A stretch of DNA of 64,000 nt from Mobula hypostoma (Eukaryota), in NCBI RefSeq assembly GCF_963921235.1, contig NC_086097.1, forward strand, positions 13,454,001-13,518,000, given 5' to 3'. Every line of letters starts with the position of its first letter. The first letter of the stretch is position 1. The position numbers and the translations under genes were made by a program. The notes beneath the pieces were generated by a model. The model was not told the origin of the DNA and searched no databases. It saw only the letters and a list, made by a program, of their open reading frames with translations. This document shows, in pieces, positions 4,011 through 64,000 of the stretch.

Positions 4011-5966
4011 TTAGTGGGGAAAATGAGGACTGGAAGACCTTTAAAAACTTACAGAAAGAAACTAAGAAAGTCATTAGGAAAGAAAAGATGAATTATGAAA
4101 GGAAGTTGACGATTAACATAAAAAAGGATACTAAGAGTTTTTTTAAATATATGAAGAGTAAAAGAGTGACAAGGGTAGATATGTGACCGATTGAAAATGA
4201 CGCTGGAGTAATTATAATGGATAACAAAGAGATGGCGGAGGAACTGAATGAGTATTTTGCATCAGTCTTCACAGTGGAAGACATGAGCAATGTACCTGAT
4301 AGCTAGAGGTATCAGGGAATAGAATTAGGTACAGTCAAGATAACTAGAGAGAAAGTGCTTGGGAAGCTAAGTGGACTAAGAATAGATAAGTCTCCCGGCC
4401 CGGATGAGGTGCACCCAAGGGTTCTGAAGGAGGTGGCTTTGGAGATTGTGGAAGCATCGGAAATGACCTTCCAGGAATCAATAGACTCTGGCATGGTTCC
4501 GGAGGACTGGAAGGTCGCAAATGTAGTTCCGCTATTTAAGAAAGGAAGGAGGCAGCAAAAAGAAAATTACAGACCTATTAGTCTAACATCGGTGGTTGGA
4601 AAGATATTGGAGTCAATCTTCAAGGACGAGGTTATAAAATACCTCGAGGAGCATGACAAGATAGGCCGAAGCCAGCATGGTTTCATGAAGGCAAGATCCT
4701 GCCTTACCAACTTATTAGAATTTTTTGAGGTAATCTCGAATAAGATTGACAAGGGAGAGGCTGTGGATGTTGTGTATTTGGATTTTCAAAAGGCCTTTGA
4801 TAAGGTGCCGCATATGAGGCTGCTTAATAAGATGAGAGCCCATGGAATTATAGGAAAAGTATTGAAATGGGTGGAGCATTGACTGATAGGCAGAAAGCAA
4901 AGGGTGGGAATAATGGGATCCTATTCTGATTGGTTGCTGGTTACTAGTGGTGTTCCGCAGGGGTCGGCGTTGGGGCCGCTTCTTTTTACGATGTATATCG
5001 ATGATTTGGATTATGAATTAAATGGTTTTGTGGCCAAGTTTGCGGATGACACCAAGATAGGTGGAGGAGCAGGAAATGTTGAAGAAACGGAAAGGTTGCA
5101 GAGAGACTTAGTCAGTTTAGGAGAGTGGGCAAAGAAATGGCAGATGAGATACAACATTGACAAATGTACGGTTGTACATTTCGGAAGAAGAAATAATCGG
5201 GCAGATTATTATTTAGGTGGGCAGAAAATTCAAAAATTGGAAGTGCAAAGGGACTTGGGGGTCCTCGTGCAGGATACCCTAAAGGTTAACCACCAAGTTG
5301 GATTGGCGGTAAGGAAAGCGAATGCTATGTTGGCATTCATTTCAAGAGGAATAGTGTACAAGAGTAAGGAGGTGTTGATGAGGCTCTATGGGGCATCAGT
5401 GAGACCTCATTTGGAATACTGTGTGCAGTTTTGGGCCCCCTATCTTAGAAAGGATATACTGATGTTGGAGAGAGTTCAGAGAAGATTTACGAGGATGATT
5501 CCTGGAATGCAGGGGCTAACATATGAGGAGCGTCTGTCGGCTCTTGGATTGTATCCATTAGAGTATAGAAGAATGAGAGGGGATCTCATAGAAACATTTC
5601 GAATGTTGAAAGGGTTGGACAGAGTAGATGTGGAAAGGTTGTTTCCCTTGGTGGGTGAGTCCAGGACAAAAGGCCATAGTCTTAGAATTAGAGGGTACCC
5701 AGTTAAAACAGAGATGAGGAGAAATTTATTTAGCCAGAGGTTCGTGGATTTGTGGAATTCATTGCCACATATGGCTGTGGAGGCCTGATCATTGAGGGTG
5801 TTTAAGGAGGAGATTGACAGGTATCTAATTAGTCAGGGTATCAAGGGATATGGGGAAAAAGCTGGAAATTGGAACTAGATGGGTGAATAGTTTAGCTCAT
5901 GGGGGAGCTGTGGAGCAGACTCGATGGGCCGAATGGCCTACTTCTGCTCCTTTCTCTTGTCTTGTG
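4011..5966 (+). mobile_element. 5'-truncated CR1 LINE with nearly intact ORF2 reverse transcriptase (few stops)
   Basis: ORFs 4355-4882 and 4904-5788 give KSPGPD, NYRPISLTSVVGK, YLDFQKAFDKVPH, GVPQGS, KFADDT. TCTTG tail; flanked by ATAAA direct repeat (4006-4010, 5967-5971). Confidence 0.95.
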
Positions 5967-9776: not shown

Positions 9777-10399
9777 CACACCAATCAATCTGGAAGAGGG
9801 ACCAGTGTTGGACCCCACCCCTCTGTGCTAGCCAAGATCACAGCCCTGAGCTCATCTCGTCTGCCTGCGTTTGACCCGACTCGCTACTACCATCAGACAG
9901 GAGGTGTAGTAGTCTTGGGTCCATTGCCACCAATATCAGGAACAATTGTTGCCCCAGAACCATCAGGCTCCTGGACTAGCATGGATGGTTTCACTCACCT
10001 CAGCGCTGAACTGACTCCACAGCCTGTAGAAATCCTGTGCTGTACTCTTCAATGTTCTGTGTCCTAATAAACAGTCAATATTTCAGGCTTCATCATCGAC
10101 TGTTTGTTCCTTTCCATAGACACTGCCTGTCTTTTGTGCTCCTCCAGCACTTCATTGTGTGTATTACTCTGGATTTCCAGCATCTGCAGAATCTCCTTAT
10201 GATTCACTGTATGTTTTCATGTACATTAGACAAATAAATCTGAATCTGAACTTTCCTGTGTTTTTTTTATGATCAATGAAATAGTTTTTACGTATACATA
10301 GATCATGATGAAGAGAAGTTTCCTTTGAAATCTAGATGAAGGTTCTCCACCTGAAATGGTGGCTGTCCATTTCTCTCAGCAGATGCTGCATGGCCTGTT

Positions 10400-25231: not shown

Positions 25232-26559
25232 GTAAGTGCAGAATAAAATCCAGAAATGCTTCGGAGCGCAAAGCAAAACCTCGTCAGTTCAAGTTCTGTG
25301 TGACAGGAGAAAGAGCTCCGAGTCACCAAGATGAAAATTTTCAAAAAGCAGATCATCTCACTCTGTTTCCAGGCAACCAGACATACTCTGTGTGCAGTGT
25401 TTCCATCTACCATGCACATCTGCCCATAGGAAGAGTGGGGTGTGTATTTTACTGTGGTAGGGCACTGGTGATATATTGCTCTTTAAATCCTCATGAAGAG
25501 TCCTGGTCAACCCAAAATGTTGACAATTTATTTTCCTCCATGAATGCTGCTTGACTTGTTGTGTTCCTCAGGTGATTTGCAACATATCCCCCTTCACTGA
25601 AAAGGGTTATCATATTTACTACGGGACTGACCTAATTTGTTCTTGTTCAAGATTACTGCATCTTGCACCCTTTTTTTTTTGCTTTTCTTCTACAAAAGTT
25701 TAGATATTTAAAAAACTAATTCTTGTAGCCAAATATTAGCAGTCCTGATGAAGGGTATTTGCAAAAATGTTGACTGCTTATTCATTCCCATAGATGCTGC
25801 CTAAACTGCTGAGTTCCTCCAGCATTTTGTGTGTGTGCTACTCTGAATTTCCAGTATCTGAAAAATCTCCTGTGTATACACCCAAATATTTTTTGTTCCT
25901 GATAGTAAAAGTAAGAAATAATTTTGTTAAATTCTGCATTATGTCTTTAGTTAATTGCAATAAAGGAAGTGATCCAAGAGGATATCCTGCGAATATTTCT
26001 GAAGAAGAATCCTCACACGAGCCTCTGTCAGTTACTGAGAAATTGCTTCGGATTTGATGAGATTGGTTTCTGTTGATTCAATCTTTTCTGTTCATTTTGG
26101 CTAGTTATCTTTCAGCAAGTGTGACAATACTCTCTGATGGCAAACAGTAGGTCATTGCCCTTATAATGCAACATTAGCTACAGATTGCTCAGCTAGGGCT
26201 GATGAAGAATGCTGAGCAACAGACACAACTGGAGGAACTCAGCTAGTCTGGTAGCATCTATAGCGAGGGGTAAGCAGTTGACGTTTTGAACGAAGACCCT
26301 ACATCAAGACTGGAAAGAAAGGAAGCTGAAACCAGAATAAGAAGGTGAAGGGAGAACAAGTGGGCAGGCGATAGGTGGAACCAGGTGAGAAGGAAGGTGT
26401 GTGGATGAGGGAGGTTGTACGAAATACGAAGCTGGGAGGTGGTGGGTGAAAGCAGTAAAGAGCTGAGGAAGAAGGGATCTGATGGGCCTGGAGAGTGGAA
26501 CCTGGTGAAGAATGCAATCAGCTCAAAGGAAGGTTCTGAAAATCAGCGTTTCACCATAT

Positions 26560-37469: not shown

Positions 37470-38649
37470 ACATCAAGTAGAATGGTGCTTGGTGGCTAGC
37501 ATAGCCTCAATGGGTTGAAGTACCTGATTGAGTCTATCAGACAGGAAGAAGGAGTTTAGGCAGAAGGGATAGAGCATAGAACGTGGAAGGGTACAGTACA
37601 GGAACAGGCCCTTCGGCCCACAGTGTTGTGCCAAAATAATCTCTTGCTAATGAAATGTTGAAAAGTTGGGATGGGCTGTAGTTTGTGATGGACTATGGAG
37701 GCTTTGCTACTGCTTGCACGGTGGGGTGGTGGGGGTTCATGCTTTTGCTGGATCAAGTGGGAGGAGGGGGGAGTGTTTATGCTTTTATTGTTGTTTGACA
37801 TGGGAGGGGGAGTGGGGCTTTGGGGTACTACCATTTTCTGTCATTCATTCTTTGGGAGTCTTTTCTGTTTCATGGATGCCTGCAAAGTGTATGGATTTCA
37901 GGTCGTATACTGTATACATTGTCTGACGTTAAATTGAACTTAATTAAACAAATTCCTTCCACCTGCACATAGTCCACAACCATCCTTTCTTTGTGCCTAT
38001 CTAAGGTACGTTTTATTGCTGCAGAGTGCATAGTCACTAAATAAAATAATTGAAAAGATAGCCAGGACTGATGTATGGTGTCCTTCATGAGTTCTGATGA
38101 AAGGTCTCAGCCTGAAACATCGACTGCTTATTCACTTCTATAGATGCTGCTTGACCTGCTGAATTCCTCCAGCATTTTGTGTCTGTTGCCCTGGGTGCAG
38201 CAACTGCAGAATCCCTTGTGTTCAGGACTGATGCATAGTGGTTTCCACAGCTACAGACATCCCACCTCTCCCGGAAGTTCCGGGAGCCTCCCGCATATTA
38301 ATAGTGGCTCCCTGATGCCCGTAAATTATATACAATATCACAGAAATCAATTTTTTTGAGAGTGAGCGAGGGAGAGAAAGCAAGAGAGAGCACGAGCGAG
38401 GGAGAGAGCGAGAGCGCGCCGTGGCAGAGCGTTCCAAAAAAATATAAAACGTACGTCACCCCAGACTACACTAAAGTCTACCCCTGCCTAATAGGGGTCA
38501 AAAATAATGACAGTGTTGCTCGCTGCGCTGTTTGCAACAGTGACTTTTCTATTGCCCATGGTGGGTTAAGACTGTAAAAGACATGTTGAGGTGAGTCTAA
38601 CAGGTGTCATTCGTTCATTAGCATAGCTAACATTATTTAAACTAGCTGG

Positions 38650-38842
38650 AAAAGGAATTCTGCAGATGCTGGAAATTCAAGCAACATACATCAAAGTTGC
38701 TGGTGAACGCAGCAGGCCAAGCAGCATCTATAGGAAGAGGCGCAGTCGACGTTCAGTTAGTCCTGACGAAGGGTCTCGGCCTGAAACGTCGACTGCGCCT
38801 CTTCCTATAGATGCTGCTTGGCCTGCTGCGTTCACCAGCAAC
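38650..38842. mobile_element. Young PLE-derived fold-back element with 17-bp flanking duplication
   Basis: Perfect 58-bp inverted arms (38696-38753, 38785-38842); TTATTTAAACTAGCTGG at 38633-38649 and 38843-38859; near-identical to 61189-61290. Confidence 0.88.
38759..38794 (+). ncRNA. Minimal type-I hammerhead ribozyme motif (PLE-type)
   Basis: AGTC-CTGACGA-AGG gtctcgg CCT-GAAA-C-GTC-GACT: stem I AGTC/GACT, conserved core, stem II AGG/CCT, GUC cleavage triplet. Confidence 0.72.
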
Positions 38843-39740
38843 TTATTTAAACTAGCTGGCCAGCTGCTAAGGAGCTACTCTATTGCAGACATTCCACCTC
38901 TCCCGGAAGTTCCGGGAGTCTCCCGCAAACTGATGGTGCTACCTCCCTGAAATGAGTTTTTGCGGGGTGGGATGTCTGCAGCTATCAACATTTTTATTGC
39001 ATGAGGTGCACAGAAATTTTGGACAAGAATTGTGAAATCACTTTGCACAAAATACAAAGCACAGAAATAAGTTTTTCAGCAAAACAGCTGACCCTGATAC
39101 TTCATGTGAGCCGCGTCACCTCATCATCTTTCACAAGAGAATATGATACTGTGAAATAAGGGGAGGGATATTGTTGATGCACAATATCCATTGCTCCCTT
39201 AAAGCAGCTGCACAGGTTAATGGGCTGGTGATGGAGGCAAATGGCGAGCTTGCTTCGATTCATCAAGACATTGAGTTCAACTGTCAGGAAGTTAACTTGT
39301 ATCTTTATGAAACTCTGGTTAGACTGCATCTGGAGTATTCATTTCGGGTCACACCATTGTAGGAAGGCTGTGGAAGGTTTGGAGATGTTTATCAGGATGC
39401 TGCCTGGATTAGAGAGCCTGTGCTATAGCACAGAGTGGACATTCTTGGGTTCTTTTCCCTGGAGCAGCAAAGGCTAGCAGAAGACCTAACAGAAGTTAAT
39501 AAAGTTTGAAAAGCATAGACAGAGTAGACATCTGAGTCTTCAGGATCAAAATGTCTAATACAGACGGGTGTATATTTAAGATGAGCAGAGGATAAGTTCC
39601 AAAGAGATATGCTGAGCAAGTTCCTTACACATAATGGTGTTTGTCTGGAATGCACTGCCATAGTAGAGGCAAATACAACAGGAACACTTAAAAGGCTCTT
39701 AAGATCATAAGATATTGGAGTTGGCCCTTCAAGTCTTTGA

Positions 39741-43170: not shown

Positions 43171-43388
43171 ACAAACAAGAGAAAATCTACAGATGCTGGA
43201 AATCTGAGCAACGCACACAAAATGCTGGAGGAACTCAGCAGACCAGGCAGCATCTATGAAAAAGGGTACAGTTGATATTTCGGGCAGGACTGCTGAAGGG
43301 TTTCGGCCCGAAATGTCGACTGCACTTTTTTCCATAGATACTGCCTGGCCTGCTGAGTTCCTCTAGCATTTTGTGTGTGTTGCTCAGG
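43171..43388. mobile_element. PLE-derived fold-back element inserted in a V-SINE
   Basis: Imperfect ~80-bp inverted arms (43204-43285, 43306-43388) around a CTGCTGAAGGG...CCCGAAA core; imperfect flanking duplication GTTAGTA(G/A)G.TA. Confidence 0.8.
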
Positions 43389-55405: not shown

Positions 55406-56499
55406 TCATCTAAAGCAGCACACACAAAATGTTGGAGGAACTCAGCAGGTCAGGTGGCTTCAATGGAAATGAATAGATAGTCAATTTTTCGGCCTGAGAA
55501 AGAAGGGTGAAGATGCCAGAATAAAAAGGTGTGCGGAGGGGAAGGAGTCTAGTCAGAAAGTGATAGGTGAAGCCACATGGGTGGGAAAGGTCAAGGACTG
55601 GAGAAGAATTAATCTGATAGGAGTGGAGAGGTGACCATAGGAGAAAAGAAAGCAGGAAGGGACACAAGGGGAAGTAATATGCAGATGAGAAGAGTTAAAA
55701 GTTCAGAGTGGGGGATAGGGAAAGTGGAATGGCGGGGGGAGGGGGGGAACGTTCTTTCTCATGTTTAGAATTTATTCAATCCACTTTTGAATGCCATTTG
55801 TAAATCTGTCAATGTTACTCTCCCCAGGCATTGCAGGCATGCAGATAGAAATATTTTCCTTACTCTTTCCTACTGTGGGCTTCCCCCAGCACATTGGTAG
55901 TCAATGCAAGCGACACAATCACTGTATGTTTTGATGGACATGTGATAAATAAAGCTGAATTTTCATCTTGAATCACTTCATTCATCCTCCCTTAGTTCTT
56001 GACCTTCTACCGATGGGAAGGTTGCCTCTCTATCTGTCGCTTTTGTGATTTTATATATCACTATCTGAACTCCATTCACACTTTTTTGTTTCAAAGAGAA
56101 TAACGACAGTTTCTTAGGTCGTTCCATATGAACAAAGTCCCTCACTCTCAAAAGACATACTTTAGCACTCCAGGGCGTTCAGATCTTACCATAAATGTAC
56201 CACCAAGAACTGGTCACAGTGGACCAGTTGTGGCCAGAGTACTTTTGATAATGGCTCACCATGAGCTTTTTGCTTTATAAAACCCAGGACCTCATATGGC
56301 TTTATAACCTCCTTTTCAAACCACACTGCCACTTTCACTGATTAACAAACAGGATACCCAGATATCTCTCTGTTAATCTATCTTTTTCTGTTGGAATTAT
56401 ATCCCTTAGTTTGTATTGTTTCATCCAGCACATTTCCATCCATTCCCAGGATGGCACAGTCATGTGGTGGTTAACACGAAGCTATAACAACAGTAACTG

Positions 56500-60398: not shown

Positions 60399-61252
60399 CA
60401 CATAAAACAAAATATCAACAAATAAGTTTGTAAACTATAATTCAAAATGCATGTGAAGTGTGCAGCACAAGTAAGCAGTAAACAGCTCATTGTCCCAGTG
60501 ATGCCATCTTGGTTTCGAAGACACATGACTATGAACAGCTGAAGGACTATGGGAAAAAGTCTTGGGTGCGGGATAATAATGGAAAGCTCTTTAAAAGAGC
60601 TCTCAAAGGTGTGTAGAGGTGGCCTTTTTCAATACTGTGAGATTTACTGATGTAGAGAAATGATTGTGGTATAACACCTGCTGGATGATATCTGTGCCAG
60701 GAAATAGGAAATGATATAGATGTGCCCAAATATCTTCATGAGATGTAAAAGGCAGAAAAGGTCGCCTCTGCTGTGAAACAATATCAGAAACACAGACACA
60801 CGAGCAAAATGACACTCAGTTAACCCTTCTCTTTCCACAGTTTCAATCAGTGCACCAAATTTTATTTCATTTATGTGGGCTTAGTGTGGCCACCAGTTTT
60901 ATATTACTGGAGGAGATGCCTCACAGTACCCTGCTGGGTACAGACAAAAAATGATGGAAATTACCCATCGCCTTGCACTGGATTATTGCCAGTTTCACCT
61001 CAGTTTCCCTCCCTCTAAATTTTAAGATCCTTGGTGCCTTCACCTCAGAAGATATATTCTGGGTCCAACATATTAAAACATGAAAACAGAAATCAACAGC
61101 CCTTTGGCCTACAATGTTGGGCCGACCATGTAACCTACTCTAGGAACTGCCGAGAATTTCCCTACTGGAATTAAGGGTTCTGGGGAAGAGCAACATACAT
61201 CAAAGTTGCTGGTGAACGCAGCAGGCCAGGCAGCATCTATAGGAAGAGGCGC

Positions 61253-61288
61253 AGTCGACGTTTCAGGCCGAGACCCTTCGTCAGGACT
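61253..61288 (-). ncRNA. Minimal type-I hammerhead ribozyme motif in PLE terminal repeat
   Basis: Reverse complement AGTCCTGACGAAGGGTCTCGGCCTGAAACGTCGACT is identical to 38759-38794. Confidence 0.72.
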
Positions 61289-61580
61289 AACTGAAGGAAG
61301 AGTGAGTAAGGGATTTGAAAGCTGGAGGGGGAGGGGGAGATGCAAAATGATAGGAGAAGACAGGAGGGGGAGGGATGGAGCCGAGAGCTGGACAGGTGAT
61401 AGGCAAAAGGGGATACGAGAGGATCATAGGACAGGAGGTCCGGGAAGAAAGACGGGGGGGGGTGACCCAGAGGATGGGCAAGAGGTATATTCAGAGGGAC
61501 AGAGGGAGAAAAAGGAGAGTGAGAGAAAGAATGTGTGCATTAAAAAGAGTAACAGATGGGGTACGAGGGGGAGGTGGGGC

Positions 61581-61907
61581 CTAGCGGAAGTTAGAGAAGT
61601 CAATGTTCATGCCATCAGGTTGGAGGCTACCCAGACGGAATATAAGGTGTTGTTCCTCCAACCTGAGTGTGGCTTCATCTTTACAGTAGAGGAGGCCATG
61701 GATAGACATGTCAGAATGGGAATGGGATGTGGAATTAAAATGTGTGGCCACTGGGAGATCCTGCTTTCTCTGGCGGACAGAGCGTAGATGTTCAGCAAAG
61801 CGGTCTCCCAGTCTGCGTCGGGTCTCACCAATATATAAAAGGCCACATCGGGAGCACCGGACGCAGTATATCACCCCAGTCGACTCACAGGTGAAGTGAT
61901 GCCTCAC
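61581..61907 (-). pseudogene. GIY-YIG endonuclease domain of the PLE ORF (intact C-terminal domain of a truncated ORF)
   Basis: VIYCVRCSRCGLLYIGETRRRLGDRFAEH...VATHFN...H...E..LIFRLGSLQPDGMN. Confidence 0.9.
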
Positions 61908-62339
61908 CTGGAAGGACTGTTTGGGGCCCTGAATGGTGGTAAGGGAGGAAGTGTAAGGGCATGTGTAGCACTTGTTCCGCTTACACGGATAAGTGCCAGG
62001 AGGGAGATCAGTGGGGAGGGATGGGGGGGACGAATGGACAAGGGAGTTGTGTAGGGAGCGATCCCTGCGGAATGCAGAGAGAGGCGGGGAGGGAAAGATA
62101 TGCTAGTGGTGGGATCCCGTTGGAGGTGGCGGAAGTTACGGAGAATAATATGTTGGACCCGGAGGCTGGTGGGGTGGTAGGTGAGGACCAGGGGAACCCT
62201 ATTCCTAGTGGGGTGGTGGGAGAGGCAGGTGGGTGGAGATGAGTCCATGGCCAGATCAGCCATAATCTTATTGAAGGATGGAGCAGACTTGATGGGCCAG
62301 ATGGCCTACTCCTGCTCTTATTTTTTATCTTCTTATGTT

Positions 62340-63205: not shown

Positions 63206-64000
63206 TCGAAACTAAATGGGTCTTTTGAATCTGATCAGTAAATGTCTTAGTTTTTATCAACAACAAACAATTGTCAGAACCTAGTGTGGTATCAATAGCA
63301 GACTGATCTCCAGAATGAAGGCGAGCAAAGATTTTCCAGGAGAATGCAGTAATTCCAAGTTGAGAGTCTTTCTCAGAATATCAGATCAAAGTTGTGGTCC
63401 TTGCACTTAAAATCCTTCCTCTCGGAGAATTGCTTCAGATCACCTGGTAACATTCCTTCCTGTCAACAATACATTTACGGAAGAATTCATTGTGAAAACT
63501 GTGTCAGTGAGTCAATCGATGACTGAGTTTGAGAATGAAATATTTGCCTTTATTGTTCCTGCTCCAGGACTCTGCGTGGAATTGAATATTTGGACGTATC
63601 TGCAGTTCACATTCCATGAAGCAGAATACAGTTGGCTTGAATCCAAATCCAAACTCTCTGCAAAAGCTCTTTCCACGCATGAAAGAGATTCAGGCATAAA
63701 ACCTTGCTGACCAAGGATCTCAAACTTATGAGGCAACATGACTGTGCCAGCTTCCTGTCCACAGGGAGCATCATATGAATGTGGAGCCACGATATTACGA
63801 TACATGCAGATCAATCATGATCTCATTTCATGGTGTGTGGTGGAACAATCTCAGAAGAGTTGAAAGGATTACTCTTTTCCTCAAATTACTTTGCACACAT
63901 GATTACAATGTGTGCACTTGGATGCATCCGACCCACTTCAACCTCCTCCAGCAATCCTGGAAAATCCCAATGGACTTGAAACAACTAGCTCCCAAATCTC

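Follow-up and report, generated by a model that had tools for sequence, protein, structure and literature searches.

The minus strand of the 64,000-nt stretch of Mobula hypostoma DNA analysed here (the window) carries, at 61189..62222, a 5′-truncated, Neptune-like Penelope-like element (PLE) that comprises the end of the RT thumb, a linker, a GIY-YIG endonuclease (EN) and a 3′ pseudo-LTR with a minimal hammerhead ribozyme (min-HHR). Its boundaries were drawn from contigs of 4 of 24 listed runs, none of the 24 being given as RNA; between 12,527 and 99,232 records mapped in each of the four, with a likeness of at least 80%. As contigs of the family run 5′ past 62222 and approx. 30 nt 3′ past 61189, and as one contig joins 61187 to 62223, we take 61189–62222 to be a 5′-truncated insertion without a tail. 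Its junctions display only a short CT microhomology, and the flanks resemble what we assume to be a CR1-type repeat.

A 173-aa open frame (61581..62102, minus strand) encodes the endonuclease, which Pfam PF01541 recognized at residues 76–151 (23.6 bits against a cut-off of 22.6) and which alignment identifies as a C-terminal GIY-YIG domain with CCHH-type residues, having two Cys residues within the core and conserved His, R, E and N. The same frame contains CKRNKCYTC (61959..61985, minus strand), a CX4CxxC motif by the linker definition of 10.1101/2021.04.23.441226. The 120 nt further upstream (62103..62222, minus strand) are a post-RT remnant that aligns with the protein relatives P0001–P0008 and, in a different frame, codes for the residues that would be expected to adjoin the open frame, indicating a frameshift near 62102–62103; contigs of all four runs compared with the 61-kb copy have an extra base near 62102. 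An earlier note on this DNA had described an intact GIY-YIG domain, which is true of the EN part, but the frame is broken and the RT core is missing. Behind the stop codon lies a pyrimidine-rich 3′ UTR/pseudo-LTR (61289..61580, minus strand), followed by the hammerhead and by the 3′ part of the pseudo-LTR (61189..61252, minus strand) without the optional tail of approx. 30 nt, which is seen in an inverted arm at 38650–38680 and as contig loose ends at 61189. We found no 5′ pseudo-LTR of the Penelope element in the 64-kb window. The 61-kb locus is a dead copy, 5′-truncated and frameshifted, of a Neptune-like Penelope element that is young and present in very many copies in a batoid-type fish.

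The 36-nt hammerhead motif reported in the earlier note is present exactly as written at 61253–61288 on the minus strand, 293 nt behind the EN stop codon, on the sense strand of the element and within its pseudo-LTR, confirming the placement in a terminal repeat. It occurs twice in the window, the second exact match being at 38759–38794 on the plus strand, and in 0 of 100 shuffles. On the minus strand it comprises a 4-bp helix I (AGTC/GACT, 61288–61285 and 61256–61253), the CUGACGA core (61284–61278), an unpaired A (61277), helix II (GGGU/GCCU, 61276–61273 and 61268–61265) closed by a CUCG loop, the GAAA core segment (61264–61261) and a predicted cut after GUC, between 61257 and 61256. Helix III is a palindromic ACGU (15.2–16.2) without a loop. 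The stem I, CUGANGA and GAAA core, ACGU palindrome and GUC triplet of the earlier description are thus all present. The published PLE min-HHR consensus is CUGANGAH-G..C-GAAAN-NUH, with an extra nucleotide between 9 and 10.1 and G10.1–C11.1 among its hallmarks (Cervera and De la Pena 2014, PMC4209133), and the min-HHR core positions C3, U4, G5, A6, N7, G8, A9, G12, A13, A14, A15.1–U16.1 and H17 are all found in the 61-kb motif, which we assign to type I from this core pattern, the comparison of loci and the consensus in Fig S3 of PMC4209133. The term ‘ultra-minimal’ used previously denotes nothing beyond the min-HHR class published in 2014 (PMC4209133).

An Rfam scan of the window up to E 10 gave six matches, none of them a hammerhead; one of these, to mir-3926 (45 bits, gathering score 82), is simply a fold-back hairpin at 38.7 kb. 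The fold energy of the isolated motif displays no extra stability over shuffles (z −0.37). In the folding model, the monomer has a minimum free energy of −10.0 kcal/mol compared with −6.0 for an active-like fold, the ACGU duplex alone contributes −3.1 kcal/mol, and the best predicted dimer is an extended inactive duplex (−28.3). The case for a hammerhead is built on core pattern, position and covariation, not on folding energy, and it makes the 61253–61288 motif almost certainly a PLE min-HHR. Motif scans of a viral-contig and a genome-contig collection gave 0 matches in each.

To follow the motif across related elements, we scanned up to 900 nt behind EN in 80 homologous loci (37–50% protein identity) with a descriptor permitting either register of helix II. 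A sense min-HHR was found behind EN in 25 of the 80 loci, or, counting those where 300 nt or more was available, in 21 of 58, and the same descriptor found none in 4000 shuffled or 80 antisense regions. All 29 descriptor matches have an A after CUGANGA and a C before GAAA. For covariation, 19 of these 29 motifs (10 duplicates or near-duplicates being dropped) were aligned with three window copies to give 22 motifs, in which all eight pairs of helices I and II have changes on both sides, a score reached by none of 500 shuffles; the motifs in this set owe their selection to a pairing descriptor, and they are related, representing approx. five independent families with one invertebrate-type family dominant. 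Helices I and II of this descriptor-picked set have the support of covariation. Sliding the helix registers left at most 50% paired. With helix II as GGGU/GCCU and an unpaired A, 97.6% of cells pair and all four pairs have changed on both sides; the AGG/CCU register given originally is off by one, pairing only 57.1% of cells, and its first pair, which engages the A that is unpaired and invariant in 22/22 aligned rows, does not form in 19 of the 21 distinct rows. U4, G5, A6, G8, A9, G12, A13, A14, A15 and U16.1, all demanded by the descriptor, are invariant in the 22 aligned motifs. Independent support comes from contigs of other subfamilies, which lose their match at the edges of helix I: at 61288, 309 contigs do so in one run and 323 in another, and at 61252, 287 do so in one run. 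A Stegostoma gene model (P0008) that reads through the region encodes the same core, with a C at 11.1 as inferred from its codons. Three invertebrate-type relatives (L009, L014 and L030) also carry an opposite-strand min-HHR 770–1170 nt upstream of the EN end, these being inverted partner copies.

Among the proteins, the 173-aa frame has 21 longer relatives, headed by gene models of Mobula (94%), Hypanus (83%), Rhincodon and Stegostoma and several of them with RT upstream, which points to a batoid host; partial PLE-type RT precedes EN in the close relatives P0001, P0004 and P0005. The earlier note had suggested looking for full-length elements with an intact RT–GIY-YIG ORF, and a search for long relatives (>740 aa) returned 85 matches, including full-length RT–EN relatives of 749–1148 aa; none of the 85 was a full-length chondrichthyan PLE ORF, which is weak evidence. 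The CX2-5CxxC linker is common to Neptune and Nematis and absent from Penelope/Poseidon (10.1101/2021.04.23.441226). In a quick tree built from 52 rows (43 proteins of the 106 fetched, eight locus frames and the focal frame, with no Nematis reference), the 61-kb family falls with the PLE proteins that have the linker and away from those that lack it. It belongs to a group of 32 rows (SH-aLRT 96) together with metagenome loci whose hammerhead is that of the Acropora digitifera Neptune row of PMC4209133. Linker and GIY-YIG domain together bear out the original identification of a Neptune-like Penelope element, and Neptune membership is likely, though shown by an indirect route, as the linker also occurs in Nematis. 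Four ray gene models with host-gene names, P0003, P0004, P0013 and P0087 (mucin-2, divergent kinase domain 1C, chitinase domain and NYAP1-like), contain coding sequence of this PLE, reflecting either exonisation or mis-annotation.

The second copy of the motif lies in a fold-back insertion, likewise young and of the 61-kb subfamily (193 nt, 38650..38842), in which an inverted arm with the tail and a direct arm with the identical hammerhead, at 38759–38794 on the plus strand, are 100% complementary over 60 nt. The insertion is flanked by a perfect 17-bp target-site duplication (38633–38649 and 38843–38859, plus strand), turns at a short TTCAG-like microhomology and forms a hairpin of −137.9 kcal/mol. 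The earlier note was thus correct that an identical motif exists here, but its host insertion has an inverted arm that pairs with the ribozyme's 3′ half, and in a transcript this arm would, as modelled, sequester the cut site. Between the two young insertions there is a single difference in 92 nt, and neither has lost any of the six CpGs; with the perfect duplication, this near-identity shows that the 61-kb subfamily is recently active, as the earlier note had proposed. An older fold-back of the pseudo-LTR at 43172–43386 (85-nt arms, 87% complementary) has a degenerate 13-nt duplication and turns inside the hammerhead, and short single-arm pseudo-LTR insertions at 38063–38236 and 25727–25890 have duplications of 14 and 11 nt (one mismatch each) and start 7–17 nt before C3.

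We also aligned 14 other pseudo-LTR fragments from the window, of which 13 span the scissile bond. The aligned 5′ edges of 11, including a fragment near 55490 that continues upstream after a deletion, fall within a span from 14 nt ahead of C3 to 18 nt beyond it. None of the 14 has its edge at the cut site (+28), with the proviso that edges of decayed copies are imprecise and, for the fragment at 10098, the start may be only a few bases away from the cut. Nearly all of these fragments span the cut, and PLE reverse transcription begins in the tail, on the 3′ side of the hammerhead (PMC11167929); their template was therefore uncut or religated RNA.

The young subfamily departs from the published PLE consensus in one respect, having U and not C at 11.1 (PMC4209133). 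Both young insertions, at 61 and 38.7 kb, form a G–U wobble at 10.1–11.1, a pair that is G–C in 19 of the 21 distinct aligned rows, and all 29 motifs of related loci have C at 11.1. Among older fragments in the window, 11.1 is clearly T in four and C in five, and some carry the mirror G-to-A change, a pattern as CpG decay would give. For the young insertions, the shared U, the single difference in 92 nt and the six retained CpGs mean that U11.1 was inherited from the source element. In the model, G–U costs 1.9 kcal/mol relative to G–C. Natural hammerheads, however, tolerate changes at 10.1–11.1, even a U–U mismatch, and mismatched ones can be active (PMC3088659); as some of the published min-HHR rows also have G–U there (PMC4209133), we regard the variant as minor. 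The 40 of 283 variant rows covered for the family all lie outside the motif, and so bear on other positions than 11.1.

The explanation that best accommodates these data, to which we assign a probability of about 0.65, is that the PLE min-HHR cleaves at the level of the family and under certain conditions. A full-length or tandem source element would give a single transcript with two pseudo-LTR hammerheads, whose ACGU palindromes could pair to form helix III. The cut after GUC would be slow and conditional on dimerisation or on binding of the PLE protein, and a monomer would favour an inactive rod-like fold, with GACG of the core paired to CGUC. Cleavage by the family is, on this analysis, probably weak and in need of a dimer or protein, and the lone 61-kb copy, which has no partner hammerhead, is probably inert. 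Lunse and colleagues reportedly described dimeric cleavage of PLE hammerheads in 2016. Cleavage would trim or process some of the transcripts and would not be required for integration, because reverse transcription sets out from the tail, 3′ of the hammerhead, and passed the scissile bond in nearly all copies. Two published systems are of this kind: monomers of the Schistosoma min-HHR are inactive and its dimers and trimers cleave weakly, with low rates in vitro (PMC4209133), and the Anolis Poseidon hammerhead cleaves only with the PLE protein and shows C3G/G8C rescue (PMC11167929). Anolis hammerhead mutants are unimpaired for insertion in vitro, no RNA-seq ends were found in Anolis at the cut site, and in vitro the main substrate is RNA that has not been processed (PMC11167929).

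The positions of the insertion ends also invite a different view, plausible though doubtful, that this lineage keeps the motif as a structure (a protein-binding site or a point of RT pausing or template switching) whose catalysis has been lost, the G–U at 10.1–11.1 reflecting relaxed catalytic constraint. The spanning of the scissile bond by 13 of 14 fragments, the clustering of 11 of 14 edges around C3 and the turning of both clear fold-back insertions within the motif are all in keeping with such a role, as are the normal insertion by Anolis mutants and the proliferation of Naiads without a hammerhead (10.1101/2021.04.23.441226). However, the catalytic nucleotides are invariant in 22/22 motifs, albeit demanded by the descriptor, while the helices covary; the Anolis hammerhead does cleave, and hammerheads mismatched at 10.1–11.1 can be active. 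A more specific and somewhat improbable version is that the youngest mobile subfamily has drifted to a weakened ribozyme (G10.1–U11.1 and a GACG/CGUC rod) and is still spreading, its short and fold-back insertions stopping or turning at the hammerhead and not at the cut, so that the motif would act mainly as a protein-gated landmark at which RT stops or switches template. If this were true, the C11.1 and U11.1 subfamilies would make the purpose of the PLE hammerhead testable from genome sequence alone.

Copies spanning the cut would equally arise if efficient dimeric cleavage and religation made circular or unit-length RNA the normal template, the copies then crossing a religated site. This model was proposed in PMC4209133 and would also explain tandem PLE arrays, but we consider it very unlikely given the low in vitro rates in the same paper, the dominance of uncut RNA as substrate in vitro (PMC11167929) and the lack of any tandem or circular junction in the window. 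That the motif is a chance look-alike within a pyrimidine-rich UTR might be suggested by the Rfam result and the unremarkable fold z-score; its fixed place behind EN across proteins 37–50% identical, its covariation and the lack of shuffle matches make this scarcely credible, and we consider it refuted by the locus scan (25/80 against 0/4000) and by the covariation of 8/8 pairs. The function of the hammerhead in EN+ PLEs is called still unclear in 10.1101/2021.04.23.441226.

Motifs of this kind have been published since 2014, and the 61-kb copy alone adds little. With the PLE min-HHRs of PMC4209133 it shares the extra nucleotide between 9 and 10.1, the loop-less palindromic helix III, the 4-bp helix I and the location in the pseudo-LTR of a 5′-truncated PLE. 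One published row, that of Acropora digitifera, is labelled Neptune and has the CUGACGAA core of the 61-kb motif, a 4-bp helix II, a 4-nt loop and CGUC; loop-less CGUC cores are published in coral, fish, frog and snake rows, whereas the Fig S3 rows examined include none from a cartilaginous fish, the host of the 61-kb motif (PMC4209133). The C-terminal GIY-YIG with CCHH-type residues, CX2-5CxxC linker, hammerhead and inverted 5′-truncated partners are like those of Neptune EN+ PLEs (Craig et al. 2021, 10.1101/2021.04.23.441226), although that clade is set by RT phylogeny and is paraphyletic there, and the 61-kb copy has no RT core. Similarly, the Poseidon element PAc of Anolis carolinensis (Frangieh et al. 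2024, PMC11167929) has a pseudo-LTR hammerhead, an optional tail of 30–40 nt, variable 3′ ends and insertion from uncut RNA. PAc nevertheless belongs to another clade, Penelope/Poseidon being without the CX2-5CxxC linker; its ORF starts inside the hammerhead, whereas the 61-kb motif contains no AUG, and its activity was measured, whereas the 61-kb motif is known here from sequence alone.

Non-LTR retrozymes (PMC7229834; Li et al. 2026, 10.64898/2026.07.22.740005) are likewise PLE-related, carry type I hammerheads and are reported from one chondrichthyan genome. They are, however, non-coding tandem repeats with mostly canonical hammerheads, whereas the 61-kb copy is dispersed and has coding sequence. 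We rejected a retrozyme reading, as there are no tandem units and dispersed copies carry coding sequence. Among the papers listed by our search of the literature, which lay outside subscription journals and Repbase/Dfam, there was none on chondrichthyan PLE min-HHRs, with the exception of the 2026 preprint on hammerhead retrozymes in one chondrichthyan genome (10.64898/2026.07.22.740005). A young, abundant vertebrate PLE family with natural variants at 11.1 amounts to a large natural experiment, in which insertion ends around the scissile bond, and conservation of core compared with flank, can be followed by subfamily age.

Several further features were observed in and around these copies. A splice-acceptor-like pyrimidine tract ending in CAG, found at 61289–61310 on the minus strand and in older copies near 26315 (minus strand) and 51565 (plus strand), lies at the 5′ strand of helix I or just ahead of it and, judged by its sequence, is a possible intron end; the intron of a Drosophila virilis PLE ends at helix I (PMC4209133). 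A GTAA donor-like word is present at the stop codon in contigs of other subfamilies, as loose ends, and is missing from the 61-kb copy. The 38.7-kb fold-back sits inside an element at 38249–38983 that is bounded by terminal inverted repeats of 18 nt (94%), has palindromic repeats inside and is probably a non-autonomous DNA transposon. Two frames with RVT_1 matches at 4307–5788 on the plus strand are probably a broken LINE-type element, and 63290–64000 is a decayed-coding-like stretch in several short frames.
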